Below are positions 42,756-61,060 of a stretch of 64,000 nt of DNA, piece by piece. Position numbers and translations under genes: made by a program. The DNA lies in the NCBI GenBank assembly GCA_963725215.1, contig CAVRXQ010000006.1, positions 2,469 through 66,468 of the forward strand, written 5' to 3'. Each line of letters opens with the position of its first letter. Position 1 is the first letter of the stretch. The notes beneath the pieces are model-generated. The model was not told the DNA's origin, made no database searches, and saw nothing but the letters and a program-made list of their open reading frames with translations. Source of the DNA: an uncultured Acidimicrobiaceae bacterium (lineage in GTDB: Bacteria > Actinomycetota > Acidimicrobiia > Acidimicrobiales > Bog-793).

Positions 42756-43210
42756 CAGTGATCCCCTTCCCATTGCGAGATGACGTCCTCGATCGCCGCG
42801 GCGGCGCGGGTGACGGCTCCAGCGACGGCACCACTCAGGTGATCACCATCGGAGAAGTCTTCCCCTTCGATCCCGACGACGACGACACGCCGTGGCGCGT
42901 CACCGAGGGCGGACGCGATGCGACAGACCCGACGCAATCCAAAGGCGTGCGTCGACGCGCTCGACCCGTCGTCGATCTCGTCGAGTTCGACAAAGAGAAC
43001 GGTTCCGGGTGCTGACTTCGACCTGGTCGCGTCAACGAGCACCGCGAGCGAGGCGCCTTCCCACCGACCGAGGAGGTCGAGCGGCTCGGAGATCGGTCCG
43101 ATGTCGCGCGCGCACTTCGATTGCGCGACGAGCGACGCCACGGCAACCCCGACGCCGTCGTCCCCACGGTAACGGTTGCCGATCCCCGCGACGACGACGT
43201 TTCCGATCAT
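42755..43210 (-). CDS. Hydrogenase maturation protease
   Basis: VAGIGNRYRGDDGVG, VLVDA, STHAFGL, VVGIEG; start ATG 43210. Confidence 0.92.
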   Translation of the reverse strand: MIGNVVVAGIGNRYRGDDGVGVAVASLVAQSKCARDIGPISEPLDLLGRWEGASLAVLVDATRSKSAPGTVLFVELDEIDDGSSASTHAFGLRRVCRIASALGDAPRRVVVVGIEGEDFSDGDHLSGAVAGAVTRAAAAIEDVISQWEGDH

Positions 43211-44511
43211 TTGTGCTCCACCGAGAGATCGAGGAAGTGCGCGGCACAAGAGATGCAAGGGTCGTGATTGCGGACCGCTTGTTCGCAAAGGTCGCGAAGG
43301 TCGTCGTCGCCCCATTCAAGTCGCGAGGCGATCACGCCGCGCAGGTCATCTTCGATCGCGTCTTGGTTCTGCGACGTCGGCGGCATGATCCTTGCGTCGC
43401 TGATCAAACCGTCTTCGGTGATCGCGTAGCGCTGGAGGAGCAGTCCGCGTGGCGCCTCCGTCGCGCCGGCGCCGGTGGCCGCGCGTGGGGCGAGCCGAAC
43501 CGACGGGGGATCGAAGCGCGAATAGGACTCGACGAGGCGGAGTGCTTCCTCGCACGCCGCGACGATCTCGACAGAGCGCACGACGATGCTCTTGAACGGG
43601 TTGCGGCACACCTCTCCCAACTGTGAGCGATGCGCCGCCTCGGCAGCGAGTGGCGGGAGCTTCGCCGAGCTCAGCGCGTAGCGAGCGAGGGGACCGGTGA
43701 GGTACGTGTCTTTCCCGCGTAGTTTTGCGTGTAGCGCACTCGAACGTTGCACGTGCTCTTCGGTGACGAGATCGAGGAATCCGCCGGCCGAGACCTTTAG
43801 CCCATCAGTGGTGTGGATCGTTCCCGATTCGATCGCGTATCGGGCCTCGTCGACGAGCGCCGCGAAGAGGTAGTCGTGCGAGGCGTCGGGGAATTCGAAG
43901 CCGGACACCCACTCGACCGTCTCGAGGGCGTCATCCAACGCTTGACGAAGGACGGGCGCAAGCGAGGCCATCTCCTCGGTGTCCGGCGCACGGTAGAAGC
44001 CGCCGACCCGGACGTTCACGGGGTGGATCGCGCGGCCGCCGACTCTTTCCATGATTGCGTTGCCGGCCTTTTTCAACCGTAGGCCGCGCTCAACCGCCGA
44101 TCGGTCGGCGGCAGCCAGTTCGACCGCGTCTTCGAAGCCGAAGAAGTCCGGCGCGTGCAAGAGGTAGACGTGCAGGGCGTGGCTCTGGATCCACTCCCCG
44201 CAATACAGCAACCGGCGCAGTTCTGAGATCTCGGGAGTCACCTTTACGCCACACGCGTCTTCGATCGCGTTGCACGCCGACATTTGGTATGCGACCGGGC
44301 AGATGCCACAGATCCGCGCCGTGATGTCGGGAGGTTCCTCAAATCCTCGTCCGCGAAGGAACGCTTCGAAAAAACGCGGCGGTTCGAAGATCTCGAGTTC
44401 GACCGACTCGAGCTCGCCGCCCGCGATTCGCACGTGGAGCGACCCTTCCCCCTCCACGCGGGCGAGCCCGTGGACGTCGATCGCGCGGTTCGCGAGCGTG
44501 TTATCCGACAT
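43207..44511 (-). CDS. [NiFe]-hydrogenase large subunit, group 3b
   Basis: [22 protein letters not shown] (L1), [14 protein letters not shown] (L2) plus C-terminal extension. Confidence 0.95.
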
Positions 44512-45271
44512 TCCGGCTCGCTTCCTGTTCAAAGGCCGCCGAGGCGGCGTTGAAGGTGCGGTACATCCGCGCGACGTGATCGCGCCTCACCCCGAGCTCG
44601 ATGAACCGCCTCGAGAGCGAGGTGGTGTTCGGGCTCTCGGAGGGGCCGAAGCAGCCGTAACAACCGCGGTCGACCGACGGGCAGAGCGCGCCGCAGCCGG
44701 CGCGGGTGACCGGACCGAGGCACGGCGTGCCGCTGACGACGAGGACGCAGACATTGCCCTTCGCCTTGCATTGTTCACAGACGCTGTAGGACGGGATCCG
44801 CGGTCGCCTCGCGGCGAGATACGCGGAGATCACCTCGAGGAGCTGGTGTTTGTTGATCGGACAGCCGTGGAGTTCGAATTCGACCGGAACGAGGGCCGAG
44901 ATCGGCTCCGATCGAGCGAGCGTCGAGATGTATTCGGGATGCGCGTAGATCGCCGAAACGAAATCGCCGACGTCGGCGTAGTTGCGCAGGGCCTGGATGC
45001 CTCCGGCCGTCGCGCACGCGCCGATCGTGATGAGACTCTTCGACTGGGCGCGAATGGCGATAATGCGCTCGGCGTCCTCCGGAGTCGTGATCGAACCTTC
45101 GACGAGTGAGACGTCGTAGGGCCCTGCGATCTGCGCCCGTGACATCTCGGTGAACTTTGCGATCACGAGGTGTTCGGTGACCGCAAGGAGCTCGTCCTCG
45201 CAGTCGAGCAGGCTGAGCTGACAGCCGTCGCAGGATGCGAACTTGAACACCGCCAGACGGGGACCACTCAT
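44501..45271 (-). CDS. [NiFe]-hydrogenase small (delta) subunit
   Basis: [24 protein letters not shown]...CVLV...[15 protein letters not shown]...GCYGCFGP. Confidence 0.93.
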
Positions 45272-46104
45272 CGCTCGGCCACCTTCATCTCGTACTCCGC
45301 GATCGGTGAGTAGGGGACGACCGGACCGTCGCGGCAGATGAGGAACGGCCCGAGTTGACAATGCCCGCAGAATCCGACCCCGCAGTTCATGTTGCGTTCC
45401 AAGGAGACGAAGATTCGTTCCGGGCTGACGCCGCGATCGATCAATGTGCGCGCGCTGAAGCGCATCATGATCTCCGGTCCGCAAACGAATGCCATCGCAG
45501 AGCGAGCGTCGAAGGACGCGTCGGAGATCAGTTGCGTCACGACGCCGACCGGTCCGAGCCAATCCGCGTCTGCCACGTCGACCGTGACTCTGACTCTTGC
45601 TCCCCGGGTGCGCCAGTCGTCCAGGTCGTTGGAGTAAATGATCTGATCCGGTGTGCGGGCGCCGACGAGCACGAGGACATCTCCCGTACGACCATGCTCG
45701 AGCGTCTCGACGAGCCGGATGATCGCGCCGCGAAGCGGCGCGATCCCGATTCCGCCCGCGACGACGACGACATCGTGATCGCCGATGTCGTCGATCGGCC
45801 AATCGGTTCCGTAGGGTCCACGGACACCGACGACGTCTCCGGGTGCGGTGTTCGCGAGGGAGTGGCTCACCGCACCGACGTCGCGGATCGTGTGTTCTAG
45901 GACGGGCGAACGCTTCGGATCCGAGCTCACAGAGATCGCCGCCTCACCAACGCCGAACGCGCTCAACATGTTGAACTGGCCGGGCCTCGGTGCGGTGATC
46001 GGATGGTCAAGGGGATCGAGGGTGATCGTCGCGATGTCCTCCGAGTCGAGGCGGTGGTCGACGACGCGATATCGCACCGGGACGAGAGGGTTGTCGAAGC
46101 TCAT
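45268..46104 (-). CDS. FAD/NAD(P)-binding gamma subunit (HydG/AsrB-like)
   Basis: [53 protein letters not shown]...CRDGPV. Confidence 0.92.
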
Positions 46105-46111
46105 CGCGTCT

Positions 46112-46579
46112 TCAGCCGACGAGGTCTCGGCCGTAGACGTCAAGGAGTCGGGTCCTCGTCGCTTGGAGGCGCTCGAGGAGGACCTGTGCGATGCGCTGGA
46201 GGATCGCGTAGCCGAACGCTGGCTCCTCGTCTGCCTTCTTGCGCAAACAGAGTCCGTCGATCGCGACCGCGCCGACGGGTTCGGTCGCGACGGCGTCGAA
46301 ATGCCATCGGTACGGAGGGACGAGCCACGAGAGCCCGAGGATCTTGCCGGGACCGATCGTCTCGATGACGATCGGTTTTCCCGATGGACGACGAACCTGG
46401 ATCGCGACTTGACCCCGCCGGATGAGAAAAAAGGTGTCTGCTTCCTCGCCTTCGAGTAACAGCCGCTCCCCTTCGTCGAATGCGACATTCGTCGCGCATC
46501 CCGCCGCAAGGTCGATCGCCGAAGCCCCAAGCCCCGAGAACAACGGGGTCTCAGCGATGAGCTCGTTCATCGATTCCAC
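46112..46579 (-). CDS. Stand-alone cyclic-nucleotide-binding domain protein (no HTH)
   Basis: [38 protein letters not shown]; 155 aa; GGAGG RBS. Confidence 0.85.
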
Positions 46580-46598
46580 TGTTCGTCCTCCGTCTCCT

Positions 46599-47720
46599 TC
46601 ACGTCGTCGCCGCGGGCCTAGACGTGTCTGTGCCCGCGATCGCGGCGACTTCTTCTGTCAGATCGATCCCGACAGGGCACCACGTGATGCAGCGGCCGCA
46701 GCCGACGCATCCGGATGATCCGAACTGATCGACCCAGGTCGAGAGCTTGTGGGTCAACCACTGCCGGTACCGCGAGCGCGTGGAAGCGTGCACGGAACCG
46801 CCGTGGAGGTAAGAGTGCTCGAGGGAAAAGCACGAGTCCCAACGCCGCGAGACCTCGATATCGCCCTCGAGGTTCGTTTTGTGCTCGAAGGCCGAGCAAA
46901 AACACGTCGGGCAGACGAGCGTGCAGTTGCCGCAGGCGAGACACCGCGTCGCGACGTCGTCCCACCGAGCATGTTCGAGGTTCTCGGCGAGAAGCGACGG
47001 AGCCCGACGCGCGTCGAGCGTGCGTGAGATCGTGGCGCGAGAGTTCTCGAGGATCTCGTCCCTCGTCGTGAGATCTTCTGCGGCTGCGTCGCGATGGGGG
47101 ACCGCGTCAAGAAGTGAGCGGCCGAGGTCGGATCCCACTCGGACCAAAAAACGGTGCGACGGCTCGAGCAATTCGGTGAGGGCGAGGTCGTAGCCGTCCT
47201 TTGCGTCGGGACCTGTCGACATCGAAGGACAAAAACACGTCGACGCCGGTTGTCCGCATTCGACGGCGATCACCGCCAGGTGCTCGCGTCGACGATCGTG
47301 CTCGGGGTCGTGGAATCTGCCGCCCGAGAGGACCGTCGACAGAACCCCGAGCGCCGCGACCTCGCACGGACGCACCCCGACGAACGCCTCGCGCACCTCG
47401 CCACCTTGCGGCGCGGAGAGTTCGAGGTCGCCTTCGTTCGTCCGGCGCCCCCGCCACACCACCGATTCTGAGGGGAACACCGACGCTTTGAGCGAGGTTG
47501 GACCGACCGCCCACCCGAACAATTCGCGGTCGCCGTCGTTGCGGATCCGATAGGAGCCAGGAGCCTGCTCGTCGTGCCAGCCGGCGGGGAGGTCGTCGCA
47601 CGACCGCACGTCGCGATGGACGATCGCGCCGTCGCGAACCGTCGGACCGAGCACGCGATAGCCCCGCGAGCGGAGTTCTCCAATCAGGGTATCGAAGTGA
47701 TCGCGATCGATCACCGCCAT
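46599..47720 (-). CDS. 4Fe-4S beta subunit (HydB/AsrA-like)
   Basis: [54 protein letters not shown]; start ATG 47720. Confidence 0.92.
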
Positions 47721-47768
47721 TGGCCGGCTCACGTGGGTCACCGTAAGGACTGGGGAGCGTGCCGACAA

Positions 47769-47834
47769 GGGTCCGACGTCCCAGCAGACACGGTCAGCCC
47801 ACTTCGCTGGGACGGTCGGTAGGACCATCGGCCC
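47769..47834. promoter_or_regulatory. Cluster of DosR/DevR-like boxes (GGGAC-N4-G(T/G)CCC) in the divergent hydrogenase/POR promoter
   Basis: GGGTCCGACGTCCC 47769-82; GACACGGTCAGCCC 47787-800 (weak); GGGACGGTCGGTAG 47809-22; AGGACCATCGGCCC 47821-34. Confidence 0.62.
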
Positions 47835-47918
47835 TGGTCGAAGCGGCGACGCGACGCAACCATGGGTTCGATCGAGTCGGCGCGCGCGACACCGCGCACA
47901 AGACGCCGAAGGGGGAAC

Positions 47919-48524
47919 ATGTTCCAAGTTCGATTCCACGGGCGAGGCGGTCAGGGTGTGGTCACCGCCGCCGAGCTCCTTGCGGTCGCGGCGTTCGACG
48001 ACGGCCGGTATTCACAAGCGTTTCCGACCTTCGGTTCCGAACGCACCGGCGCGCCGATCGTCTCGTTCTGTCGCATCGACGACAAGGAGATCAGGACCCG
48101 CTCGCCGATCAGCGAGCCCGACGCGCTGATCATCCAGGACCCGACGCTGCTCGGACTGCCCGGGCTGTTCACGGGGTTGCGACCGGAGGGCTACCTCGTG
48201 CTCAACACCTCGAAACCGATCGCCGAACTCGGACTTGGCACGCTCGCGTTGAGCTTGCCGCCTGGGCACCTGCTCGCGATCGGTGCGACAGAGCTCGCGC
48301 TGGAGCACCTCGGTCGTCCGCTGCCCAACGCGGTGCTGCTCGGCGGTCTCGCCGCAATCACCGGCGTGGTCTCGCTTGGCGCCGTGGTCGCGGCAATCGA
48401 AGAGCGATTTACGGGTGCCGCGGGATCGGGAAATGTCGCCGCGGCACAAGCGGCCTACGAGATCGGTCGCGCCGCGTTCGGTGCGCAAGAGAACAACAGG
48501 GGGGTGGCTCTTCGTGCTTCGTGA
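47919..48524 (+). CDS. porC: 2-oxoacid:acceptor oxidoreductase gamma subunit
   Basis: MFQVRFHGRGGQGVVT, QAFPTFGSERTGAP, PDALIIQDPTL, PNAVLLG. Confidence 0.92.
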   Translation: MFQVRFHGRGGQGVVTAAELLAVAAFDDGRYSQAFPTFGSERTGAPIVSFCRIDDKEIRTRSPISEPDALIIQDPTLLGLPGLFTGLRPEGYLVLNTSKPIAELGLGTLALSLPPGHLLAIGATELALEHLGRPLPNAVLLGGLAAITGVVSLGAVVAAIEERFTGAAGSGNVAAAQAAYEIGRAAFGAQENNRGVALRAS

Positions 48525-49767
48525 GATCGAAGGATCACGGGCGATCGCTGAAACCGTCGCGCTCTGTCGTCCGCAGGTCGTCTGCGCATACCCAATCTCG
48601 CCCCAGACCCACATCATCGAAGGGGTCGGCGTACTCGTGAAACAGGGCCGGCTCGCTCCGTGCGAATTCATCAATGTCGAATCCGAGTTCGCCGCGATGT
48701 CCGTTTCGATCGGCGCGTCCGCGACAGGGGCTCGCGCCTACACCGCGACGGCGAGCCAGGGCCTGCTCTTCATGACCGAGGCCGTCTACAACGCGTCGGG
48801 GCTCGGCTTGCCGATCGTGATGACCGTCGCCAACCGAGCGATCGGAGCCCCCATCAATATCTGGAACGATCACGGCGACGCGATGGCGCTACGCGACTCG
48901 GGATGGATTCAGCTCTTCGCGGAAGACAACCAGCACGCGGTCGACCTCCACGTCCAGGCGTTCCGCGTCGCGGAGGAGCTGTCGGTCCCGGTGATGGTGT
49001 GCATGGACGGATTCATCCTCACCCACGCCGTCGAGCGCGTCGACGTTCCCGATCAGGACCAAGTCGATCGCTTCCTTCCCTCGTTCACGCCGCACGAAGA
49101 GCTCGACTGGGCGCGTCCTGCGTCGATCGGCTCGATGGTCGGTCCTGAAGCATTCACGGAGGTGCGCTTCCTCGCGCACGCTCGTCAGCTCGAAGCTCTG
49201 GAGCGCATTCCGGAGCTCGCGAAAGAGTACGGAGCGATCGTCGGTCGTAGACGAGGCGGCCTGTTCGACGTGTACCGCTGCGACGATGCCGAGACGATCG
49301 TCGTCGCGCTGGGATCAGTCGTGGGGACGATCAAAGACGTCGTCGACGCGATGCGCGCCGACGGGTTGTCGATCGGCGTCTTGTCGCTCACCACTTTTCG
49401 CCCCTTCCCCGGGGACGCGCTGGCGACCGCACTGTCCGCCGCGTCGCGTGTCGTCGTCGTCGAGAAGTCATTCGCGATCGGCTCGAAGGGAATCCTCGGC
49501 GCAGAGGTCGGCGCCCTGCTCCACGACGACCGCACCGCCGTCCACACCATCGTCGCAGGCCTCGGCGGTCGGGCGATCGGCGAGTTCTCCCTGCGGTGCG
49601 CGTTCGAAGAGGCGATTCGGGGCGAGCTCGCAGAGATGAGCTTTCTCGACCTCGACCGAGCGGTCGTCGATAGGGAGCTCGAGCGGATGTCGCTCGATCC
49701 TCGCCTTCCACCGAGCGCGCATCGCGTGCTAGCAGACGTGCGCCGCCAGGCGAGTCAAGCGGTCTAG
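48514..49767 (+). CDS. porA: 2-oxoacid:acceptor oxidoreductase alpha subunit
   Basis: AYPISPQT, ESEFAAMS, TATASQGL, NRAIGAPINIWNDH, MDGFILTH, FRPFP, GLGGR. Confidence 0.93.
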   Translation: MLREIEGSRAIAETVALCRPQVVCAYPISPQTHIIEGVGVLVKQGRLAPCEFINVESEFAAMSVSIGASATGARAYTATASQGLLFMTEAVYNASGLGLPIVMTVANRAIGAPINIWNDHGDAMALRDSGWIQLFAEDNQHAVDLHVQAFRVAEELSVPVMVCMDGFILTHAVERVDVPDQDQVDRFLPSFTPHEELDWARPASIGSMVGPEAFTEVRFLAHARQLEALERIPELAKEYGAIVGRRRGGLFDVYRCDDAETIVVALGSVVGTIKDVVDAMRADGLSIGVLSLTTFRPFPGDALATALSAASRVVVVEKSFAIGSKGILGAEVGALLHDDRTAVHTIVAGLGGRAIGEFSLRCAFEEAIRGELAEMSFLDLDRAVVDRELERMSLDPRLPPSAHRVLADVRRQASQAV

Positions 49768-49775
49768 GAGGAGCG

Positions 49776-50789
49776 ATGAGCGAGGCCGGGGTGAAGTTCT
49801 ACCAAGTGGGCAGCTTCGCGGTCGGAAACCGGTTGGTTGAGCCGCACCTTCGAACGGTGCAGTCCGAGCGCCGTCGCCCGAACGCGCTGACCTCGGGACA
49901 CCGCGCCTGTCAGGGATGCGGTGAGGCCCTTGGCGCGCGATACGTGTTGGATGCAGCCCTCGACGCGGCGGACGGCAAGCTGCTTGTCGTCAACGCGACG
50001 GGCTGCCTCGAGGTCTTCACGACCCCATACCCGGAAACCTCGTGGCAGGTCGCATGGCTGCACTCGTTATTCGGAAACGCAGCGGCCGTCGCAACAGGCG
50101 TCGCCGCGGCATTGAAGGCGCGGGGAGACGACGAGACGCGCGTCGTCGCCCAAGCGGGCGACGGGGGAGCGGTCGACATCGGCTTCGGCTGCCTTTCAGG
50201 GATGTTCGAGCGCAACGACGACGTGCTGTTCGTTTGTTACGACAACGAGGCGTACATGAACACCGGCGTCCAGCGCTCGGGCGCGACTCCGCCCGCCGCT
50301 CGCACAGCGACGACGGAGGCCGTCGGAGCCGAACCTGGCAACGCCTTCGGACAAGGAAAGGATCTCCCGCGGCTCGCCGTCGCGCACGGGATTCCGTACG
50401 TCGCGACCGCGACCGTCGCGGACTTGCACGATCTCGAAGCCAAGGTGCACCGCGCGATGGCGATTCGCGGTGCGCGCTATCTGCACGTGCTCGTGCCCTG
50501 CCCGCTCGGATGGGGATCGGCGTCGTCAGACACGATCAAGATCGCGCGGCTCGCGCACGAGACCGGACTGTTCCCGGTCTACGAGGCGGCCTACGGCGAG
50601 GTCCTCGAGACGACGCCGATCCGGAAAAAGGCACCGGTTGAGGACTACCTGCGCTTGCAACGGCGCTTCCGGCATCTCTTCGAGCCTGAAAAGCGACCCG
50701 ACGCGATCGCGAGGCTCCAAGAGATCGCCGATCGCAACGTCGAGCAGTTCGATCTCGTGCGTGCTGGATCCGCGGAGGTGAGTCGATGA
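49776..50789 (+). CDS. porB: 2-oxoacid:acceptor oxidoreductase beta (TPP-binding) subunit
   Basis: GHRACQGCG, TGCLEV, GDGG, YDNEAYMNTGVQRS, PCPLGW. Confidence 0.93.
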   Translation: MSEAGVKFYQVGSFAVGNRLVEPHLRTVQSERRRPNALTSGHRACQGCGEALGARYVLDAALDAADGKLLVVNATGCLEVFTTPYPETSWQVAWLHSLFGNAAAVATGVAAALKARGDDETRVVAQAGDGGAVDIGFGCLSGMFERNDDVLFVCYDNEAYMNTGVQRSGATPPAARTATTEAVGAEPGNAFGQGKDLPRLAVAHGIPYVATATVADLHDLEAKVHRAMAIRGARYLHVLVPCPLGWGSASSDTIKIARLAHETGLFPVYEAAYGEVLETTPIRKKAPVEDYLRLQRRFRHLFEPEKRPDAIARLQEIADRNVEQFDLVRAGSAEVSR

Positions 50790-52414
50790 GCGAGCACGAA
50801 TTCGCGATCACTTTGGACGTCGGCTCGAGCAGGGCGAACAAGACGGGATCCTGGCGCGTCGAGCGGCCGATCTACGTCGATCGGATGCCACCCTGCAACG
50901 ATGCCTGCCCGGCGGGGGAGAACGTCCAGGGTTGGCTGTATCTCGCCGAGGAGGCGAAGTACGAGTCGGCGTGGCGCGCCCTAGTCGAGCAGAACCCCCT
51001 CCCCGCCGTATCGGGTCGGATCTGCTTCCACCCGTGCGAGAGCGCGTGCAATCGCGGGCAGCTCGACGAAGCAGTCGGCATCCACGCGGTCGAGCGCTTC
51101 CTCGGTGACGCCGCAATCGATGGCGGATGGTCATTCGACCCACCGTCTCGGAAATCAGAAAAGCGCGTGCTTGTCGTTGGGTCGGGACCGTCCGGACTGT
51201 CGGCCGCGTATCACCTCGCGCGTCTCGGACACGAAGTCGAAATCTTCGAGTCGTCGCCCGCGCCGGGCGGGATGTTGCGATACGCCATTCCCCGCTACCG
51301 GTTGCCGCGTGAAGTTCTCGACGCTGAGATCGCTCGTATCGAAGCGCTCGGGGTCTCGATCACGTGCAATCGCCGTGTAGACGACGTGGAAGACGAGATG
51401 GCTAGAGCGGGTTTCGACGCGGCGTTCCTTGGCTTTGGCGCACAGCTGTCGCACAAGACGGCGATCCCCGCCGCGGACACTTCACACATCATCGACGCGC
51501 TCGACCTGTTGCGAAGTGCAGAGGACTCAGAGCCAATCGAGATCGGGCGGCGCGTCGTCGTCTACGGTGGCGGCGACACGGCGATGGACGCGGCGCGCAC
51601 CGCGAAGCGGCTCGGAGCGACGGACGCGGTGATCGTCTACCGGCGCAACCGCGACAAGATGCCTGCCCACTTGGTGGAATTCGAAGAGGCGCTGTCTGAA
51701 GGGGTGACGGTGCGCTGGCTCTCGACGATCACCGAATTCGCGCCAGGAAAGGTCGTCGTCGAAAAGATGGAGCTCGACGAGAGCGGATTTCCGCAACCGA
51801 CGGGCGAGCTGAGCGAGCTCGGCGCCGATTCGGTGGTGCTCGCATTGGGCCAGGACACGGATTTGTCGGGCGTCTCGCATCTCGACGGAGTCGAGATCAC
51901 AGGCGGCACGGTGAAAGTCGACACCGAGATGATGACCGGGCGTCCAGGCGTCTTCGCCGGCGGGGACATGGTCCCTTCCGAGCGGACCGCCACGGTCGCC
52001 ATCGGCCACGGCAAGAAGGCCGCCCGTGCGATCGATCGGTGGCTGAATGGCGCCGAGACCGTCGAGCGCCTGCGACCCGAGCTCGCGAGCTTTGAGCGGC
52101 TGAACACCTGGTACTACGCCGACGCGCCGAAAAGTGTCCAGCCTGAACTGGAGCTCGCCCGCCGACAAACCGGCTTCGAGGAGGTCGTCTTCGGTCTCGA
52201 CGAGTCGAACGCGCTCTTCGAGGCGCGCCGGTGCATGTCGTGCGGCAACTGCTTCGAGTGCGACAACTGTTACGGCGTTTGCCCTGACAACGCCGTGTCT
52301 AAGCTCGGCCCGGGCAATCGGTACGAGATCAATTACGACTATTGCAAGGGATGCGGGATCTGCGTCGCGGAGTGCCCGTGCGGCGCGATCGAGATGGTGC
52401 CCGAACTGATCTGA
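50786..52414 (+). CDS. GltD/SudA-like FAD/NAD(P) FeS flavoprotein with PorD-like ends
   Basis: N-terminal KTGSWRVERP; PCNDACP, GRICFHPCESACNR, GSGPSG, YGGGDTAMD, FAGGD; C-terminal CMSCGNCFECDNC...CP and DYCKGCGICVAECP. Confidence 0.88.
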   Translation: MSEHEFAITLDVGSSRANKTGSWRVERPIYVDRMPPCNDACPAGENVQGWLYLAEEAKYESAWRALVEQNPLPAVSGRICFHPCESACNRGQLDEAVGIHAVERFLGDAAIDGGWSFDPPSRKSEKRVLVVGSGPSGLSAAYHLARLGHEVEIFESSPAPGGMLRYAIPRYRLPREVLDAEIARIEALGVSITCNRRVDDVEDEMARAGFDAAFLGFGAQLSHKTAIPAADTSHIIDALDLLRSAEDSEPIEIGRRVVVYGGGDTAMDAARTAKRLGATDAVIVYRRNRDKMPAHLVEFEEALSEGVTVRWLSTITEFAPGKVVVEKMELDESGFPQPTGELSELGADSVVLALGQDTDLSGVSHLDGVEITGGTVKVDTEMMTGRPGVFAGGDMVPSERTATVAIGHGKKAARAIDRWLNGAETVERLRPELASFERLNTWYYADAPKSVQPELELARRQTGFEEVVFGLDESNALFEARRCMSCGNCFECDNCYGVCPDNAVSKLGPGNRYEINYDYCKGCGICVAECPCGAIEMVPELI

Positions 52415-52516
52415 CCATCCCGGGTTCGCAGAGCCCGGCGGGAAATGTGGTGTACCGACCGGGTCTCGGTGGCGCGATCGAGCGTGCCGAGAGCCTGGGA
52501 GGTGGGGAGGCAGTAG

Positions 52517-53767
52517 ATGTCCGAGCAGTCGGCACCGTCGAAAGGTGAGGAGGCACCCGAAGAGGGGCCAATTCACCCGTCTGTTCGCGCGACGTTGACC
52601 GCGGGCGTCTTACGCGAGCAATCTCGGGACGAGCGCAGGGTCGCGCTGGTGCCGGATGACGTTGCGAAGCTGGACGGAATCTCTATCGACGTCGTGGTCG
52701 AGTCCGGAGCGGGCGAGGCGTCTTTCTTCCCCGACCTGGCCTACGAAAAGGCGGGCGCGACGATCGTCGATCGATCCGAGTGCCTTTCGCGCTCGAACGT
52801 CATCCTTTGCGTGTCGCGACCAGAAGAGAGCGATGTGCAGTCGTTCGGCGCCGGCCAGGCCGTTGTCGGAATGCTCGAGCCCCTCGTCGATCCTGAGTAC
52901 GCGAAGGCGATCGCCGCTCGCGGCGCGACGGGTATCAGCCTCGATTTGTTGCCGCGCACGCTTTCGCGCGCGCAGACCATGGACGCCTTGAGCTCGCAGG
53001 CAAGCATCGCTGGCTACAAGGCGGCGCTGTTGGGGGCGAGCACGTTCACGAGGTATTTCCCATTACTGATGACGGCCGCAGGCACCGCTCGGCCCGCGGA
53101 GGTCCTCGTCCTCGGCGCCGGCGTCGCCGGTCTCCAAGCAATCGCAACGGCGCATCGCCTCGGTGCCGTCGTCCGCGGCTACGACGTGCGGCCAGACGCG
53201 AAAGAGCAGGTGGAATCGCTCGGCGGTCGCTTCATCGAGTTGACCTCGGTAAGCGATGCCGCCGGCGAGGGCGGCTACGCGCGGACCTTGACTGCGGACG
53301 AGACCAAGGCCCTCCAAGAGGAGCTGAACGCGCACATCGCCACCCACGACGTCGTGATCACGACGGCGCAGGTTCCCGGACAACGGCCACCGGTGCTCGT
53401 CACGAACGAGGCGATCGATGCGATGAAGCCAGGATCCGTGATTGTCGACATGGGATCGAGTGCCCTCGGTGGCAACGTCGAAACGTCGCGGCCCGGAGAG
53501 ACCTTCGTCACCGACGGCGGGGTGACGATCGTCGGCGCGCAAAACCTCGCCTCGACGATGGGTGCCGGCGCATCGATGGCGTATTCGCACAACATCTGCG
53601 CGCTCGTCGCGCACTTCGTGGTTGAGGGGAAGTTCGTCGTCGATCTCGAAGACGAGATCCAAAAAGGCGTCGTCGTCACCCACGACGGAGCCATCGTCAA
53701 CGAGGCCACTCGGGCGCGGCTTGGAAATTCCGCCGCCGCGCCCACGAGTGAGGATGCCGAGCGATGA
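52517..53767 (+). CDS. pntA: NAD(P) transhydrogenase alpha subunit, part 1 (domain I)
   Basis: ERRVAL, RAQTMDALSSQA, GAGVAGLQA, DVVITTAQVPG, GGNVE. Confidence 0.93.
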   Translation: MSEQSAPSKGEEAPEEGPIHPSVRATLTAGVLREQSRDERRVALVPDDVAKLDGISIDVVVESGAGEASFFPDLAYEKAGATIVDRSECLSRSNVILCVSRPEESDVQSFGAGQAVVGMLEPLVDPEYAKAIAARGATGISLDLLPRTLSRAQTMDALSSQASIAGYKAALLGASTFTRYFPLLMTAAGTARPAEVLVLGAGVAGLQAIATAHRLGAVVRGYDVRPDAKEQVESLGGRFIELTSVSDAAGEGGYARTLTADETKALQEELNAHIATHDVVITTAQVPGQRPPVLVTNEAIDAMKPGSVIVDMGSSALGGNVETSRPGETFVTDGGVTIVGAQNLASTMGAGASMAYSHNICALVAHFVVEGKFVVDLEDEIQKGVVVTHDGAIVNEATRARLGNSAAAPTSEDAER

Positions 53768-54090
53768 GCACCAGCCTGATCACCGATATCACGATTTTCG
53801 TTCTCAGCTTGCTCGTCGGCTTCGAGGTCATCTCGAAGGTTCCCCAGACGTTGCACACCCCGCTGATGTCGGCCGCGAACTCGATCCACGGTGTCGTGAT
53901 CGTCGGGGCGTTTCTCATCGCGTCGACGGCGCACAACACAGTCGGCTACGTTCTCGCCTTCATCGCCGCGGTGTTCGCGGGGATGAACGTCGTGGGTGGC
54001 TACGCGGTCACCGGCAGGATGCTGCAGATGTTCCAACGGCGCCCGGCGAATCCCGGGCAACAATCGGACAAGGACGAGAAGGTCGCGTGA
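53764..54090 (+). CDS. NAD(P) transhydrogenase alpha subunit, part 2 (membrane)
   Basis: VPQTLHTPLMSAANSIHG, NVVGGYAVTGRMLQMF. Confidence 0.93.
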   Translation: MSTSLITDITIFVLSLLVGFEVISKVPQTLHTPLMSAANSIHGVVIVGAFLIASTAHNTVGYVLAFIAAVFAGMNVVGGYAVTGRMLQMFQRRPANPGQQSDKDEKVA

Positions 54091-55517
54091 TGGGCGCGTT
54101 CACCGACGCGATCACGCTGATTTACCTGCTGGCCGCAACGTGCTTCGTCATCGGATTGCACCTGATGAACGCCCCTCCGACAGCCAATCGCGGCAACCAG
54201 GTCTCGGCGGGGGGAATGGTGATCGCCGTTGGGGCGACGCTCGCCCTGATCGCGCACGACAACACCGTTTCCACGATCGGGTGGCTAATGCTCACGCTCG
54301 GGGGCGTGCTCGGTTCGGGAGTGGGCCTTTATCTCGCGCGCTCTGTGGAGATGACCGCAATTCCACAACTCGTGAGCGCGTTCAACGCGGTGGGCGGCGG
54401 CGCCGCCGCGCTCGTCGCGATCGCGGAATTCGTCCGGCTCGCAGGACTCGTTAACGCGCCTGCGATCCCGGCGAGGATCTCTGTCTTCACTGTCCTCGAC
54501 ATCGTCATTGGCGCCGTCACCTTCTCAGGATCGGTGATCGCGGCTGGGAAGTTGCAAGGCATCGTCCCCTCCCAACCCGTCGTCGTTCCGGGCGGCAGGT
54601 TCGCGAACCTCGCCTTGTTTGCGGCGATCTGCGCGGGAGCGGGATACATCTTCTCGGGCGCCAATAGCGACTTGACCCTGATCGGCATCACGATCGCGTC
54701 GTTGATCATCGGCGTGGTCATGGTGATGCCAATTGGCGGGGCCGACATGCCAGTCGTGATCTCGCTCTTGAACGCGTTCACCGGAACCGCGGTCGCGATG
54801 GCGGGGTTCGTCATCGACAACGTTTCGCTGATCATCGCCGGAGCCCTCGTCGGGGCTTCTGGGAGCATCCTTACGAAGCTGATGGCCGACGCGATGAATC
54901 GCTCGATCCTCAACATCGTGGCGGGGGGCTTTGGGACCGGCGACGCGGTCTCGGTGATCGGCGCCGGCGCGAGCGGGCAGGTCCGCTCGGTCTCCGCCGA
55001 CGACGTCGCGATCCAGCTCGCCTACGCGAACCAAGTGATCATCGTCCCTGGCTACGGTCTTGCGGCGGCCCACGCCCAGCACGCCGTGCGAGAACTCGAA
55101 GTCCTGCTCGAACAGCGCGGCGTCGACGTGCTCTATGCAATCCACCCGGTCGCCGGTCGGATGCCAGGTCATATGAACGTCCTTCTCGCCGAGGCGGAAG
55201 TCCCGTACCAGAAGCTTCGGACGATGGAGGAGATCAACCCGGACTTTCCCCGCGCCGACGTAGCGCTCGTGATCGGAGCGAACGACGTCACAAATCCCGC
55301 CGCTCGCCGCCCGGGCAACGCGATCTCGGGGATGCCAATCCTCGATGTCGACAAGGCGAAGAGCATCATCGTCATCAAGCGCTCGATGGGTCACGGGTAC
55401 GCCGGGATCGACAACGAGCTCTACACCGATCCGAAGACCGGCATGTACTTCGCCGACGCGCTCGCCGGGTTGCGGGCGATCACCGCGGCCGTCAAGACAC
55501 TCGTCGGCGCCGGATAA
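54090..55517 (+). CDS. pntB: NAD(P) transhydrogenase beta subunit
   Basis: PQLVSAFNAVGG, IGGADMPVVISLLN, VPGYG, HPVAGRMPGHMNVLLAEA, GANDVTNP, GYAGIDN. Confidence 0.95.
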   Translation: MGAFTDAITLIYLLAATCFVIGLHLMNAPPTANRGNQVSAGGMVIAVGATLALIAHDNTVSTIGWLMLTLGGVLGSGVGLYLARSVEMTAIPQLVSAFNAVGGGAAALVAIAEFVRLAGLVNAPAIPARISVFTVLDIVIGAVTFSGSVIAAGKLQGIVPSQPVVVPGGRFANLALFAAICAGAGYIFSGANSDLTLIGITIASLIIGVVMVMPIGGADMPVVISLLNAFTGTAVAMAGFVIDNVSLIIAGALVGASGSILTKLMADAMNRSILNIVAGGFGTGDAVSVIGAGASGQVRSVSADDVAIQLAYANQVIIVPGYGLAAAHAQHAVRELEVLLEQRGVDVLYAIHPVAGRMPGHMNVLLAEAEVPYQKLRTMEEINPDFPRADVALVIGANDVTNPAARRPGNAISGMPILDVDKAKSIIVIKRSMGHGYAGIDNELYTDPKTGMYFADALAGLRAITAAVKTLVGAG

Positions 55518-56354: not shown

Positions 56355-57322
56355 AGCCAGGGAACCTTCCACGTCCCGGTGATGGTGGAGGAGGTCCTCG
56401 ACCTCGTGCGCCCTTGCCCTCCCGGCGTGATCGTGGACGCGACGGTTGGAGGCGGCGGTCACGCCGCCGCGATCCTCGACGATCGTCGCGACGTCGTCGT
56501 GGTCGGGATCGACCAGGACGACGAGGCGATCTCGGCCGCCACAGAGCGTCTGGCTGCTTTCGGGGGCGCGCGATCGTTCGCCGGGGACGCTTTGACGAAC
56601 TTGACGCGATCGTCGCAGCGATGCCGGGATCGGGTTTTGCCGAGGACGGCGGGATATCGGCGGTCCTGTTCGATCTCGGAGTGAGCTCCCGACAGCTCGA
56701 CGCGCCGGGACGCGGCTTCAGTTATCGACTCGATGGTCCGATCGACATGCGAATGGACCAGCGATCCCCGACATCGGCGGCCGACCTCGTCAACACGGCC
56801 GGCGCGCAGGAATTGGCAGACCTGTTCCGTCTGCACGGCGAGGAACGTTTCGCGAAGCGCATCGCCGACTCGATCGTGCGCCGCCGCCCGATCGCGACGA
56901 CGACGGAACTCGCCGACGCGGTTTCGGCGGCCATCCCCCACGCGCATCGCCGCCGGGGACACCCGGCGCGGCGGGTCTTCCAGGCCCTGCGTGTCGCGGT
57001 GAACGATGAACTGAAAACGCTCGAGACGGCGCTCGATAAGAGCATCGACTTGGTCGCGCCCGGTGGACGCATCGTCGTCATCTCGTACCACTCGGGTGAG
57101 GACCGCATTGTGAAGCGCCGCTTTCGCGAATGGTCGTCGTCGCAGTGCTCGTGCCCACCGGGTGTCCCATGTGCATGCGAAACAGCCCCAATGGCCCGTC
57201 TGCTCACAAAAGGAGCGGAACGTCCGAGCGCCGACGAGATCGATCGCAATCCGAGAGCACGCGAGGCGCGACTGCGCGCAATCGAGCGCGCCGACGCTCC
57301 AAAAGACGAGGCCGCGCCCTGA
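56352..57322 (+). pseudogene. rsmH: 16S rRNA m4C1402 methyltransferase, split by a 1-nt frameshift (error or real)
   Basis: HVPVMVEE, DATVGGGGH, GIDQD in one frame; DLGVSSRQLD, RGFSY, LDMRM-like IDMRMD, FQALRVAVNDE, ISYHSGEDR, NPRAR in another; junction at G5 run 56562-66. Confidence 0.85.
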
Positions 57323-57816
57323 TGGCCGCGGCACGGCCGCTTCCCGCGACCGCACGCCCGCGCCGGCGCGCGACCGCCGGCTCTGGCGGCCGACGGGCCG
57401 GCGCCTCGTCGCGCACGAACCGTCGGGTCGACACCTCATCGCGTAAGCGCCCTTCGCACCACACGAAGGTCGTCGATCACCGCGCGGCCGATCGCAGGAA
57501 GATGCGCCGGCGGACTCGACTGCTGCTCGTCGTGGCGGTCGTCCTCGTCGCTGGGACGTTGTTCGCTGTCGCGGGTGGGCAGGCTCTCGTTGCTGCTCAT
57601 CAAGTAGAACTCGACCAGGCTCAGCAGTCGCTAACGACCGCCGTCGCGCGCGATCAGAATCTCGAATTCACGCTTTCGAAGCTTGAATCGCCTGCTCGCA
57701 TCGTAGAGATCGCTGAGGGGCGCTACGGGATGATCGTGCCTCAAAGCGTCGTGTACCTCGCGCCGGTCAACCCTGGCCCCACCGTCATCACCGCGGCCAA
57801 GAGGTCGAACCGGTGA
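57322..57816 (+). CDS. ftsL: Cell division protein FtsL-like
   Basis: Basic N-terminus, one TM, coiled coil then LESPARIVEIA...GMIVP; between rsmH and ftsI. Confidence 0.75.
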   Translation: MAAARPLPATARPRRRATAGSGGRRAGASSRTNRRVDTSSRKRPSHHTKVVDHRAADRRKMRRRTRLLLVVAVVLVAGTLFAVAGGQALVAAHQVELDQAQQSLTTAVARDQNLEFTLSKLESPARIVEIAEGRYGMIVPQSVVYLAPVNPGPTVITAAKRSNR

Positions 57817-59546
57817 GTTCGAAGGGCCGCCGCCGACCGTCGGCAACGACGATTCGGCTTCGACGCATCTCAGCGGTTGCGGTCCTTCTCATCGCCGGGC
57901 TCAGCATTCGGCTCGTGCTCGTGCAGGTGTTCGACGGCTCGCGCTACGCGTCGTACCTCAGCGGAGAGGTCGAACAGAAGGTCTCTCTTCCTGCCACCCG
58001 TGGGGCGATCTACGACAGCACGGGCAACGTGCTCGCCGTATCGGTCGAGCGCACGAACGTCATCGCTGACGATTTCCAGATCACCCATCCCGACAAAGAG
58101 GCGTCCGCGCTTGGGGCATTGCTCGACGAGCGCGCCTCGAAGCTCGCGCGAGAACTCTCCCAAAAGAACGGGTACGTCGTGATCTCCCGGGCACTCACGA
58201 ACAAAGTCGTCGATCCGATCGAATCGGGCGGCTTCGCGGGGCTGTCGTTTTCGACGGTGCAAGAACGCGTGACCTCAGGCGACGGCGTGTTCCAGCCCGT
58301 CCTCGGGGACGTAAACACGTCAAACCTCGGATACTCGGGCATCGAATACGCGTTCGACGGCGCGCTCTCTGGTCGCGCTGGGAGCGAGGTCGCCACCGTC
58401 GCTCCAGGAGGGATCACCCTTCCAACCAAACCCCGTGACGTAGTGGCGCCGCACGCGGGAACGGGGATCGTGCTCACGATCGACGAGCCGTTGCAGGTCG
58501 AGACCGAGCGCGACGTCGCCGCGCAAATGCGCGCCACGCACGCCAACAGCGGGATCGCGGTGATCATGAACGTCCACTCCGGTGCGATCCTCGCGATGGT
58601 CGATCTCGTGCGAAATCACCGTGGGTCGATCGTCCCTGCGGAGCAAAACCTCGCCGCGACGAACGTCTATCAGCCAGGTTCTGTGATGAAGCTCGCGACG
58701 GTTTCGTTCGCGCTCCAAGATGGGCTGATCACCCCGTCGAGCTTGTTCACCGTTCCGTATTCGATCAACGTCGGGGGCTATCAATTCCAAGACGCCGACT
58801 TCCACCCGACCGAAGCGATGCCCGTGTCTCAGATCCTCGCCCAGTCGTCGAACGTCGGAACGATCGAAATCGCGCAGCGCCTTGGCTTAGAGCGGCTTTC
58901 CCGGGCGCTCTCCTCCTACGGCTTCGGACGCCCCTCGGGGCTCGGCTGGCCGGGGGAGTCGCCTGGGATCGTCGGGTCACCCGCGACGTGGTACGGCTCG
59001 TCCGCCGCCTCCGTGCCGATCGGCACCGGGGTCGCGGTGACCCCGCTCCAGATCCTCGATGCCTACAACTCCGTCGCCAACGGCGGCGTCTTCGTCACCC
59101 CCCACCTCGTCGAAGGACTCGTGAACGACAAGGGCGTTGAGCACCTCGTGGCGCCCCGGATCGGAAGGCGGGTGATCGACGAGTCGACGGTCGCGCAGCT
59201 CGTGCCGATGCTCGAAGGCGTCGTACAAGACGGAACCGCCGTGCTGGCGCACATCCCCGGTTACACGGTGGCCGGGAAGACGGGAACCGCTCAAGTTCCC
59301 GATGCGACAGGTCTTGGATATGTTCCAGGTGACTGGAATGCAACGTTCGTCGGTTTCGTACCGGCGCAGTCGCCGCAGCTCTCGGGCATCGTTGTCTTGA
59401 ACCACCCGACACCGATCTACGGTGGTTCGGTGTCTGCACCGGTCTTTTCGAAGATCATGCAGTACGCACTCAGGCGATTTGACATCGCCCCGCCGACTGC
59501 TTCGACGACGTTGACATCGACGTTGCGACGCGGCAGTTCGAAGTGA
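57813..59546 (+). CDS. ftsI: Penicillin-binding protein (FtsI/PBP3)
   Basis: RGAIYD, YQPGSVMK (SxxK), SSN, GKTGT. Confidence 0.93.
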   Translation: MSSKGRRRPSATTIRLRRISAVAVLLIAGLSIRLVLVQVFDGSRYASYLSGEVEQKVSLPATRGAIYDSTGNVLAVSVERTNVIADDFQITHPDKEASALGALLDERASKLARELSQKNGYVVISRALTNKVVDPIESGGFAGLSFSTVQERVTSGDGVFQPVLGDVNTSNLGYSGIEYAFDGALSGRAGSEVATVAPGGITLPTKPRDVVAPHAGTGIVLTIDEPLQVETERDVAAQMRATHANSGIAVIMNVHSGAILAMVDLVRNHRGSIVPAEQNLAATNVYQPGSVMKLATVSFALQDGLITPSSLFTVPYSINVGGYQFQDADFHPTEAMPVSQILAQSSNVGTIEIAQRLGLERLSRALSSYGFGRPSGLGWPGESPGIVGSPATWYGSSAASVPIGTGVAVTPLQILDAYNSVANGGVFVTPHLVEGLVNDKGVEHLVAPRIGRRVIDESTVAQLVPMLEGVVQDGTAVLAHIPGYTVAGKTGTAQVPDATGLGYVPGDWNATFVGFVPAQSPQLSGIVVLNHPTPIYGGSVSAPVFSKIMQYALRRFDIAPPTASTTLTSTLRRGSSK

Positions 59547-61060
59547 CGAGTTTGGCTGTGGTGGACGAAACGATCGCCGTGACTATCGACAAGATCGTGG
59601 AGCGCGTTCAGCCGCTCGCGGTCGTCGGCCAGACGGCGGGTGTTGCCGTTACCCACGTCGCCTTCGACCACAGGAGCGTCACACCCGGCTCGATGTTTTG
59701 TTGTCTCGTCGGAGCGCAAGCAGACGGTCACGATTTCGCGTCTCTCGCCTATCGACGTGGCGCCGTGGCGTTCATCTGTGAGCATTCCTTGGGCAAAGAA
59801 GTCGGTTCCACCGCCCAGCTCGTCGTCGGGCCAGGGATGGCTCGACAAGCGATGGCCCTCGCGGCCTGCGCGCTCTACGACGATCCCGCACAAAAGATGC
59901 GCATGGTCGGCGTGACAGGAACGAACGGCAAGACGACGACGACGCAACTCCTCCGCGACATCTTCGAGGTCGAACACTGGTCGACGGGCGTTGTCGGCAC
60001 CCTGGGCGGGGTGAGGACGACGCCGGAATCACCGCGCCTGCAGCGACTGCTGTCCGAAATCCACAACAAGGGCGCGGTCGCGTGCGCGATGGAGGTGACA
60101 TCACACGCCCTGGCGCAGCATCGCGTCGACGGAATTCGATTTGACGTCGCGGTATTCACAAACCTGTCGCAAGATCATCTCGACTTCCATCATTCGATGG
60201 AGTCGTACTTCGCCGCGAAGGCGGAGTTGTTCACCCCGGATCGGGCGCGATTCGCGGTGATCTGCCGGGACGACGAGTTCGGGCGGCGGCTACTCGGAAA
60301 GAGTCAGATCCCGGCCGTCTCTTACTCGCTCGAGGACGCGCACGATCTCGAGGTCGGACTGTCGGCGTCGCGTTTCCGACTCGGAAAGCGCGACGTCGTG
60401 CTTCAAATGGGTGGGGAATTCAACGTGAAGAACGCTCTCGCCGCGGCGTTCACGGCGCGCGCGCTCGGGGTTGAGCCGGATGCGATCGTCGAAGGCCTCG
60501 CCCGAGCACAGCACGTTCCCGGTCGATTCGAGACGATCGAGGGAGACAACGGGGTCGTGGCGATCGTCGACTACGCGCATACCCCCGCAGGGATCGAAGA
60601 GGTCTTGCGTGCCGTTCGACGCGATCGGAAAGAGCATGAGGTGACCGATCGGTCGAAAGTGATCCTCGTGTTCGGCGCGGGCGGCGATCGGGATCGAGGC
60701 AAGCGCCCGGCAATGGGAGCGATCGCGTCACAGCTGGCGGACGTCGTCGTGTTGACGAACGACAACCCGAGAAGCGAGGACCCGGGACAGATCGTGGAGG
60801 ACATCAAAGCGGGGATGTCCGGGGAAGCCCAGGTCGTCGTGGAACTCGACAGGCGCAGGGCGATCCTCGAGGCGCTCACGAGCGCCCGCCCGGGGGACGT
60901 GGTGGTTGTCGCGGGAAAGGGTCACGAAACTACCCAGGAGTTCGCCGACCGGTCGGTCCCATTCGACGATCGCCAAGTCGTTCGCGACGAGCTCGCGCGC
61001 CTCGGTTGGCGCATGAAGCGCCAGCGCGCGGGGATCGAAGGCCAAGCGGGCACGCAGTGA
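59543..61060 (+). CDS. murE: UDP-MurNAc-Ala-Glu:meso-DAP ligase
   Basis: GTNGKTTT, MEVTSH, FTNLSQDHLDFH, VDYAHTP, GAGGDRD, DNPR (meso-DAP motif), AGKGHE. Confidence 0.96.
   Translation: MTSLAVVDETIAVTIDKIVERVQPLAVVGQTAGVAVTHVAFDHRSVTPGSMFCCLVGAQADGHDFASLAYRRGAVAFICEHSLGKEVGSTAQLVVGPGMARQAMALAACALYDDPAQKMRMVGVTGTNGKTTTTQLLRDIFEVEHWSTGVVGTLGGVRTTPESPRLQRLLSEIHNKGAVACAMEVTSHALAQHRVDGIRFDVAVFTNLSQDHLDFHHSMESYFAAKAELFTPDRARFAVICRDDEFGRRLLGKSQIPAVSYSLEDAHDLEVGLSASRFRLGKRDVVLQMGGEFNVKNALAAAFTARALGVEPDAIVEGLARAQHVPGRFETIEGDNGVVAIVDYAHTPAGIEEVLRAVRRDRKEHEVTDRSKVILVFGAGGDRDRGKRPAMGAIASQLADVVVLTNDNPRSEDPGQIVEDIKAGMSGEAQVVVELDRRRAILEALTSARPGDVVVVAGKGHETTQEFADRSVPFDDRQVVRDELARLGWRMKRQRAGIEGQAGTQ

Follow-up and report, generated by a model that had tools for sequence, protein, structure and literature searches.

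The window analysed here is a stretch of 64,000 nucleotides, with about 65% G+C, from an uncultured Acidimicrobiaceae bacterium of the Bog-793 lineage (GenBank assembly GCA_963725215.1, contig CAVRXQ010000006.1), and the names of homologues likewise indicate Acidimicrobiales. The window carries an operon of four genes, porG, porA and porB followed by a gene for a 542-residue fusion protein, which would together encode a four-subunit, pyruvate-type 2-oxoacid oxidoreductase. In this reading, to which we give a probability of roughly 0.7 from sequence comparison, the delta subunit (PorD) has been rebuilt by the insertion of a circularly permuted flavoprotein module of the NfnB/GltD type at the junction of its N-terminal arm and its iron-sulfur core. 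The complex would then act as a pyruvate:NADP+ oxidoreductase in which an internal wire of five clusters leads to FAD. The reading builds on direct observations, namely the domain architecture of the fusion protein, its permutation, the conservation of its cluster ligands and of the operon, and the absence of a free PorD.

The fusion gene lies at 50786..52414 on the forward strand, as do the three por genes before it, and its product matches the NCBIfam family NF009410/PRK12771, 'NAD(P)-binding protein', over its full length (741.6 bits against a cut-off of 516, with residues 3-540 covering profile positions 16-565 of 566). Pfam places Fer4_20 at residues 34-112, Pyr_redox_2 at 127-409 and a 4Fe-4S dicluster domain at 488-534. 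In a preliminary description of this DNA, it was proposed that PorD is split around a flavoprotein of the GltD/SudA type, and the domain scan fully supports this, with PorD ends on either side of a Fer4_20 and Pyr_redox_2 middle. The motifs quoted there are all found: KTGSWRVERP at residues 19-28, GSGPSG at 132-137, GGGDTA at 261-266, YRRNR at 285-289 and NYDYCKGCGICVAECP at 516-531. What was overlooked is that the flavoprotein module is circularly permuted and that the protein already belongs to a catalogued family. The order along the chain is PorD arm, Fer4_20 profile positions 30-110, FAD and NADPH domains, Fer4_20 positions 2-29 and PorD core. Measured against PorD (TIGR02179 / NF040684) as a contiguous, stand-alone subunit of about 80-105 residues, the fusion differs in having 542 residues, with the arm and the core 455 residues apart.

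The N-terminal arm (residues 6-33, FAITLDVGSSRANKTGSWRVERPIYVDR; 50801..50884, forward strand) was tested separately, as it was the weakest claim of the preliminary description, and three kinds of comparison identify it as PorD-like. Among 177,635 distinct PDB sequences, the first 45 residues match a single one, 9bt4_G, the delta subunit of the Methanosarcina pyruvate:ferredoxin oxidoreductase (PFOR), with residues 9-37 aligned to 7-36 at an E value of 1.3e-3 (TLDVGSSRANKTGSWRVERPIYV against TCEPGSTLANKTGGWRNFRPVYI). The same 45 residues match positions 6-31 of the NCBIfam model PorD_Arch (E 2e-5), and a profile-profile alignment made with hhalign, in which 12 N-termini of the family were compared with six stand-alone actinobacterial PorDs, gives a probability of 96% and an E value of 4e-9. 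Thirteen arm residues (F6, A7, T9, L10, G13, S15, N18, T20, G21, W23, R24, Y30 and D32) are invariant in 51 homologues. At the other end, the 2x[4Fe-4S] core (residues 489-540; 52250..52405, forward strand; C489, C492, C495, C499, C520, C523, C526 and C530) is likewise PorD-like, as had been suggested, with residues 488-540 matching 9bt4_G 32-83 at an E value of 5e-14. The whole fusion, with its two CxxCxxCxxxCP motifs, scores 66.5 bits against TIGR02179, whose cut-off is 60.05. When the two ends are spliced together (residues 1-33 and 481-542), they cover positions 6-84 of the 85 in PorD_Arch, reach 78.2 bits with TIGR02179 and share 43% identity with a free PorD (E 2e-21). Both termini therefore align to PorD in separate searches with the arm, the core and the spliced ends.

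Between these ends lies a flavoprotein module of the NfnB/GltD type whose parts occur in an altered order. Canonical NfnB and GltD proteins begin with R-x-x-N-F-x-E-V, followed by EA-x-RC-x2-C-x4-C-x3-CP, and the domain in the fusion begins only at PPC37-x3-C41P. This second part of the Fe-S domain (Fer4_20 positions 30-110; 50888..51121, forward strand) contains C37, C41, C80, C84, C88 and E103. It is followed by the FAD and NAD(P)H domains (Pyr_redox_2 in Pfam, residues 127-409; 51164..52012, forward strand), in which GSGPSG lies at 51179-51196, GGGDTA at 51566-51583 and YRRNR at 51638-51652. The missing first part is found behind them, at residues 461-488 (QTGFEEVVFGLDESNALFEARRCMSCGN; 52166..52249, forward strand), a segment of 28 positions with two cluster cysteines, C483 and C486, that matches only Fer4_20, at profile positions 2-29 (E 1e-3). 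It runs directly into the PorD core, producing a six-cysteine run near the C terminus, C483-x2-C486-x2-C489-x2-C492-x2-C495-x3-C499P.

The permutation can be undone on paper. Joining residues 452-488 to residues 35-118 gives a single Fer4_20 match over positions 2-110 of 113 with 95.7 bits, compared with 63.4 for the N-terminal piece alone, and restores the canonical spacing C-x2-C-x4-C-x3-CP. Aligned to residues 15-125 of T. maritima NfnB, the joined sequence has no gap where the two pieces meet, and its alignment to residues 23-137 of A. brasilense GltD is continuous. Residues 452-488 alone, only 37 in number, have three PDB matches, namely the N terminus of NfnB and the positions after the flavin domains in NfnA (9n5u) and in 9bov_A. 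The module is thus a circularly permuted NfnB/GltD type, with Fer4_20 positions 2-29 placed after the flavin domains. Its new termini fall in the Cb-Cc loop; such termini must be adjacent in space, which is what would make the permuted module insertable at the arm/core junction of PorD. The fusion lacks the canonical linear order, with the CxxC segment at the N terminus; of the features of NfnB and GltD it has Fer4_20 and Pyr_redox_2, seven cysteine ligands and one glutamate, and the FAD and NADPH loops. The closest PDB matches in both sequence and fold (Foldseek) are StnC (8oh5_C) and NfnABC (9bov_A and 9n5u_A), with 320, 306 and 293 bits. The fold search, done with an AlphaFold2 monomer of the fusion, confirmed only the family.

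By homology, we infer four [4Fe-4S] clusters within the fusion protein. The proximal cluster would be held by C41, C80, C84 and E103, the distal flavoprotein cluster by C483, C486, C37 and C88, and the two PorD-core clusters by C489/492/495/530 and C499/520/523/526. All of these residues are invariant in the 51 homologues, as are all 17 positions counted as Fe-S ligands. At the position of E103, P. furiosus NfnI-B has Glu126, the ligand of its FAD-proximal cluster that is not a cysteine (PMC12221290), and StnC has Lys170 (PMC10482914). The counterparts of C483 and C486 in NfnI-B are Cys42 and Cys45, its 'first two ligating cysteines'. C486, a predicted ligand of the distal cluster, lies only two residues away from C489, with which the ligands of the PorD core begin. 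Since these two cysteines would ligate neighbouring clusters, a tight electronic coupling of module and core can be argued. The nucleotide site points to NADP(H). Y285-R286-R287, also invariant in the 51 homologues, aligns with Y323-R324-R325 of NfnI-B, whose Arg325 is named as one of the NADP(H)-contacting residues (PMC12221290). The YRR motif is common to NADPH-binding relatives, and since all close solved relatives bind NADPH, NADP+ is the likely acceptor.

The operon offers no other PorD. The gene porG (gamma subunit; 47919..48524, forward strand) is recognised by Pfam POR (E 1e-36) and by TIGR02175 PorC_KorC (190.8 bits, cut-off 81). The latter match sets in only at residue 20 of an open reading frame that opens at 47862, and the likely start is the ATG at 47919, preceded by GAAGGGGGAAC. 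It is followed directly by porA (alpha subunit; 48514..49767, forward strand; Pfam POR_N and PFOR_II), whose start is uncertain. GTG 48514 is likely, and overlaps the end of porG by 11 nucleotides (48514-48524); the listed start at 48283, which would overlap porG by about 240 nucleotides, is almost certainly not used. The usual place of porD is between these two genes, and the fusion gene stands instead after porB (beta subunit, with thiamine pyrophosphate (TPP) and one [4Fe-4S] cluster; 49776..50789, forward strand; TPP_enzyme_C). The porB product carries GDG...NEAYMNTG and the candidate cluster cysteines C45, C48, C77 and C242. The ATG of the fusion gene overlaps the stop codon of porB as ATGA, with the ribosome-binding site GGAGGTGA upstream, so the two genes are expected to be translationally coupled. 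The earlier observation that there is no stand-alone porD holds, and in the genome as a whole, which is 90% complete, a search for a free PorD with TIGR02179 gave as its sole other match NuoI, inside a nuoH-K cluster. The arrangement is also conserved elsewhere. We fetched 80 loci from at least five phyla, together with 10 short loci from relatives; in all 80, wherever enough upstream DNA is present, the order is porG-porA-porB-fusion, and the gaps between porG and porA are too short for a porD.

With these parts in hand, a mechanism can be proposed. The arm and the core would dock on PorA and PorB as they do in ordinary PorD, and pyruvate would be decarboxylated on TPP. Electrons would then pass from TPP to the [4Fe-4S] cluster of PorB, through the two PorD-core clusters to the distal and then the proximal flavoprotein cluster, and on to FAD and NADP+. 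The net reaction would be pyruvate + CoA + NADP+ to acetyl-CoA + CO2 + NADPH, using no soluble ferredoxin and conserving no energy. The acetyl-CoA + CO2/pyruvate couple lies near -500 mV and NADPH near -320 mV, and a drop of about 180 mV to NADP+ would make the reaction effectively irreversible and not energy-conserving. Direct transfer from the Por subunits to NADP+, as first suggested in the preliminary description, is still the most economical reading of an operon lacking porD, of invariant ligands, of the C486/C489 pair and of the YRR motif; from these we infer the substrate, the NADP+ preference, the direction of the reaction and its independence of ferredoxin.

Care must be taken with several points that weigh against this reading. 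The PorD-core clusters could still be reached by soluble ferredoxin. The preference for NADP+ comes from motif homology only. The substrate is not certain, since PorA (429 bits against 550) and PorB (324 bits against 405 with PRK11865) fall under the NCBIfam equivalog cut-offs. Finally, the AlphaFold2 monomer has a mean pLDDT (predicted local distance difference test score) of 72.5, with values below 50 in the arm (residues 1-22) and in Fe-S loops (81-93 and 485-502), and is of low confidence in the arm and unreliable around all Fe-S sites.

The most serious alternative, which we consider unlikely, is that the enzyme is a three-way hub. Soluble ferredoxin would exchange electrons at the PorD core, and the flavoprotein would add an NADPH:ferredoxin oxidoreductase, so that electrons are shared among pyruvate, ferredoxin and NADP(H). 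In ordinary PFORs, ferredoxin is reduced at the PorD core, and the core of the fusion is fully canonical. NfnB-like modules are also able to act as ferredoxin:NADP+ oxidoreductases (PMC12221290). Against this, the two-residue distance from C486 to C489 favours an internal route, and no ferredoxin gene is conserved beside the operon in the 80 loci, a weak point, as only genes of the window itself served as probes.

A second alternative keeps both the architecture and the mechanism, but takes another 2-oxoacid, such as 2-oxobutyrate, a branched-chain 2-oxoacid or glyoxylate, as the physiological substrate. The PorA and PorB scores given above leave room for this, and VorB-type models also score well. 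The nearest solved relative of PorA, though, is a true PFOR alpha subunit, that of M. acetivorans (9bt4_B, E 5.5e-108). The substrate-region motifs of PorA, YPISPQT and VANRAIGAPINIWNDHGD, are nearly identical to those of that subunit (YPI(T/S)PQT and VANRA(I/V)xAPINIWNDH) and differ from those of oxalate oxidoreductase. Pyruvate is the likely substrate on sequence grounds, and a different 2-oxoacid is improbable.

More improbable still is that the flavin bifurcates or confurcates as in NfnB, coupling the oxidation of pyruvate or NADPH to a second donor or acceptor. The proximal cluster does keep the NfnB-type glutamate (E103) and not the lysine of StnC and NfnA (PMC12221290; PMC10482914), and R172 corresponds to Arg201 of P. 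furiosus NfnI-B. On the other hand, His295 of the fusion stands where NfnB has Arg333, a residue put forward as a marker of bifurcating NfnB (PMC12221290), the operon encodes neither an NfnA-like partner nor a second nucleotide site, and in the nearest structural relatives the module serves as a simple wire that does not bifurcate (PMC10482914; PMC12018979). Among the open reading frames of the window, where the fusion has porG, porA, porB and pnt as neighbours, neither NfnA nor GltB was found. With His295 at the Arg333 position and no NfnA-like partner encoded, simple non-bifurcating transfer is the better reading. A separate GltD-like gene is present elsewhere in the genome (C2:408532). Least probable of all is the reverse direction, in which NADPH would drive the synthesis of pyruvate to assimilate carbon. 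Many of the hosts do live as autotrophs or phototrophs (e.g., Gallionella, Sulfurisoma, Rhodoblastus and Lamprocystis), but without bifurcation the reaction would be uphill by roughly 35 kJ/mol, the operon adjoins a group 3b hydrogenase in this genome, and a pyruvate dehydrogenase (PDH) complex is also encoded, which fits a conditional, oxidative role for the operon.

The fusion is not confined to this lineage. More than 8,000 database clusters match it, and in a collection of species-representative genomes at least 595 stretches encode a relative. Full-length homologues, 63-86% identical, come from Acidimicrobiia, Thermoleophilia, Streptomyces, Frankiaceae, Alpha-, Beta- and Gammaproteobacteria, Acidobacteria and Chloroflexota, and about half of 41 relatives have a full-length orthologue. 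The six-cysteine run is present in 91 of 99 representatives (chosen at 50% identity, 500-640 residues), and most of these 91 also have a TGxWR-type arm. Among 14 model genomes, no member of PRK12771 scores above the cut-off. The module is also found in other settings: behind a PorG domain in proteins of about 755 residues (P0149, P0163), before the ferredoxin part of IorA, the alpha subunit of indolepyruvate oxidoreductase, in proteins of about 990-1,130 residues (P0181, P0234), and joined to a PreA/dihydroorotate-dehydrogenase-like domain in a protein of 914 residues (P0245). This suggests an insertable module that has given rise to a general family of NAD(P)-linked oxidoreductases.

Two neighbours of the operon deserve separate consideration. 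Downstream on the forward strand are pntAA (52517-53767), pntAB (53764-54090) and pntB (54090-55517), which encode a proton-translocating transhydrogenase; the spacer of 102 nucleotides between the fusion gene and pntAA contains a short GC hairpin, at about 52419-52437, that lacks a T tract. Divergent from porG, on the reverse strand, are the genes of a group 3b [NiFe] hydrogenase, hydB, hydG, hydD and hydA (43207..47939), which match the NCBIfam sulfhydrogenase HydB/G/D/A models, all four well under the equivalog cut-offs. In the listed frames, hydB, hydG and hydD are much extended at the N terminus; these extensions are probably artefacts, due to in-frame starts further upstream in high-GC DNA. 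In the preliminary description, the oxidoreductase was said to feed HydG and Pnt. In this lineage the genes are indeed adjacent, and gene context alone would suggest the group 3b hydrogenase as a possible sink for NADPH, or Pnt as a possible route for its exchange. As a general feature of the system, the hydrogenase and Pnt were rejected: of the 80 loci, about 5, all actinobacterial, have the hydrogenase next to the operon and 2 have pnt there, so neither is conserved with the module. In the set of 10 short loci, pnt adjoins the fusion in four besides that of the window (3/4 same-genus genomes and one of another genus). Close relatives alone retain this neighbourhood of pnt. Beyond the redox block, at 56400-64000 on the forward strand, lies a cluster of division and cell-wall genes (rsmH, a small ftsL-like gene, ftsI, murE, mraY, murD and ftsW).

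From pyruvate to acetyl-CoA the genome offers two routes, the aerobic one of PDH and the Por-type one. An AceE-type PDH E1 is encoded at G000:C5:134190-136883 (1284 bits, over the cut-off) and an E2 acyltransferase at C5:142345-143028. Two more alpha-type genes of 2-oxoacid:ferredoxin oxidoreductases are present at G000:C2:171935-172591 and G000:C6:163904-164413 (POR_N, 167 and 165 bits), and no PorD-like partner is detectable with TIGR02179 for either. As PDH E1 and E2 and these two alpha genes are encoded, the por operon is probably a conditional route. For hypoxia, the suggested pathway in this genome runs from pyruvate to NADPH and on to H2 by way of the group 3b hydrogenase, or from NADPH to NADH by way of Pnt; were Pnt to work in the reverse direction, a proton-motive force could be built from the NADPH that the oxidoreductase would make.

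The architecture, although widespread and catalogued as PRK12771, is named only 'NAD(P)-binding protein', and members are sometimes named as a delta subunit by JGI. In the full-text literature, no paper was found that describes or assays the fusion of PorD with a flavoprotein, the term 'PRK12771' returns one unrelated preprint, and the fusion is absent from reviews on Nfn and on Fe-S flavoenzymes. The genome paper on Thiocapsa bogorovii, for instance, lists only gamma, alpha and beta subunits for such an operon (PMC10892978). In current metabolic reconstructions, such operons count as PFOR that depends on ferredoxin, and the fourth gene is left out of account. If NADP+ is reduced directly, the redox balances of hundreds of soil, freshwater and iron- or sulfur-oxidising bacteria would shift, with NADPH gained instead of low-potential ferredoxin and no ferredoxin sink needed. 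For protein evolution, the fusion gene would be one case in which a permuted module with adjacent termini is seamlessly inserted at a junction of another protein, and for engineering it could offer a compact part for NADPH-yielding pyruvate oxidation.

A broader proposal can be made only tentatively, at somewhat less than even odds. It would be that these operons represent an unrecognised, widespread bacterial class of ferredoxin-independent pyruvate:NADP+ oxidoreductases, formed by reciprocal interleaving, with a permuted NfnB-type module threaded into PorD. Bacteria that are mostly aerobic or microaerobic could then convert pyruvate to acetyl-CoA independently of O2 and with a yield of NADPH. 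In the present lineage this route would be connected to fermentative H2 release by an NADPH-linked group 3b hydrogenase, and perhaps to a reverse-running PntAB that builds proton-motive force, and the IorA and PorG variants would belong to an overlooked general family of NAD(P)+-linked 2-oxoacid oxidoreductases.

Comparison with known systems shows how the parts have been recombined. The PorABGD PFOR of M. acetivorans (9bt4) has homologous gamma, alpha and beta subunits, and its delta subunit aligns end to end with the KTGxWR arm and 2x[4Fe-4S] core of the fusion once these are spliced. Unlike PorABGD, the fusion operon has no free delta of 85-105 residues between porG and porA; its delta is the last gene and carries an insert, about 455 residues long, that is predicted to bind FAD, NADPH and two [4Fe-4S] clusters. 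The acceptor in PorABGD is ferredoxin, and the one predicted for the fusion enzyme is NADP+.

StnC (8oh5) and the NfnA of NfnABC (9bov, 9n5u) share the permutation, with the EA-RC-x2-C segment after the flavin domains, and also carry an NfnL-like module inserted in a host Fe-S protein. There the module sits in a NuoG-like subunit and acts as a non-bifurcating wire that leads from NADPH by way of FAD and two clusters (PMC10482914; PMC12018979). The host is NuoG/Fdh-like in those proteins and PorD in the fusion, which ends at residue 542 with the PorD core and lacks the N-terminal [2Fe-2S] domain, the NuoG/Fdh-like domains and the HydBC-like bifurcating partners. Its proximal-cluster ligand is predicted to be a glutamate (E103), as in NfnB, and not a lysine, and electron flow is expected to be toward NADP+. 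NfnB, GltD and the Cac_0764-type proteins share with the fusion Fer4_20 and Pyr_redox_2, the seven cysteines and the glutamate, the FAD loop, the GGGxTA loop and YRR. For stand-alone NfnB-like proteins of the Cac_0764 type, the reduction of NADP+ by reduced ferredoxin has been demonstrated (PMC12221290). In contrast to these, the module in the fusion is permuted, does not stand alone, has no NfnA or GltB partner and carries His295 at the Arg333 position.

The phenylglyoxylate:NAD+ oxidoreductase PadEFGHI of Azoarcus evansii (NF045762-NF045766) also combines Por-type alpha, beta, gamma and delta subunits with a flavoprotein that reduces a pyridine nucleotide, and PorG, PorA and PorB of the window match the PadE, PadG and PadI models. 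Its delta subunit (PadF) and flavoprotein (PadH) are separate proteins, unlike those of the fusion. Homology of the inserted module to PadH was considered and rejected, as the PadH model has no match to the fusion at E <= 0.001; the two flavoproteins are thus analogous and not detectably related. The pyruvate:NADP+ oxidoreductase (PNO) of Euglena and Cryptosporidium is a single-chain PFOR with a C-terminal FMN/FAD module of the cytochrome-P450-reductase type. Its net reaction is the one predicted here, and in both enzymes a PFOR would be physically joined to an NADP+-reducing flavoprotein. In the fusion, the reductase is unrelated to the P450-reductase module of PNO, and it has been inserted inside the delta subunit.

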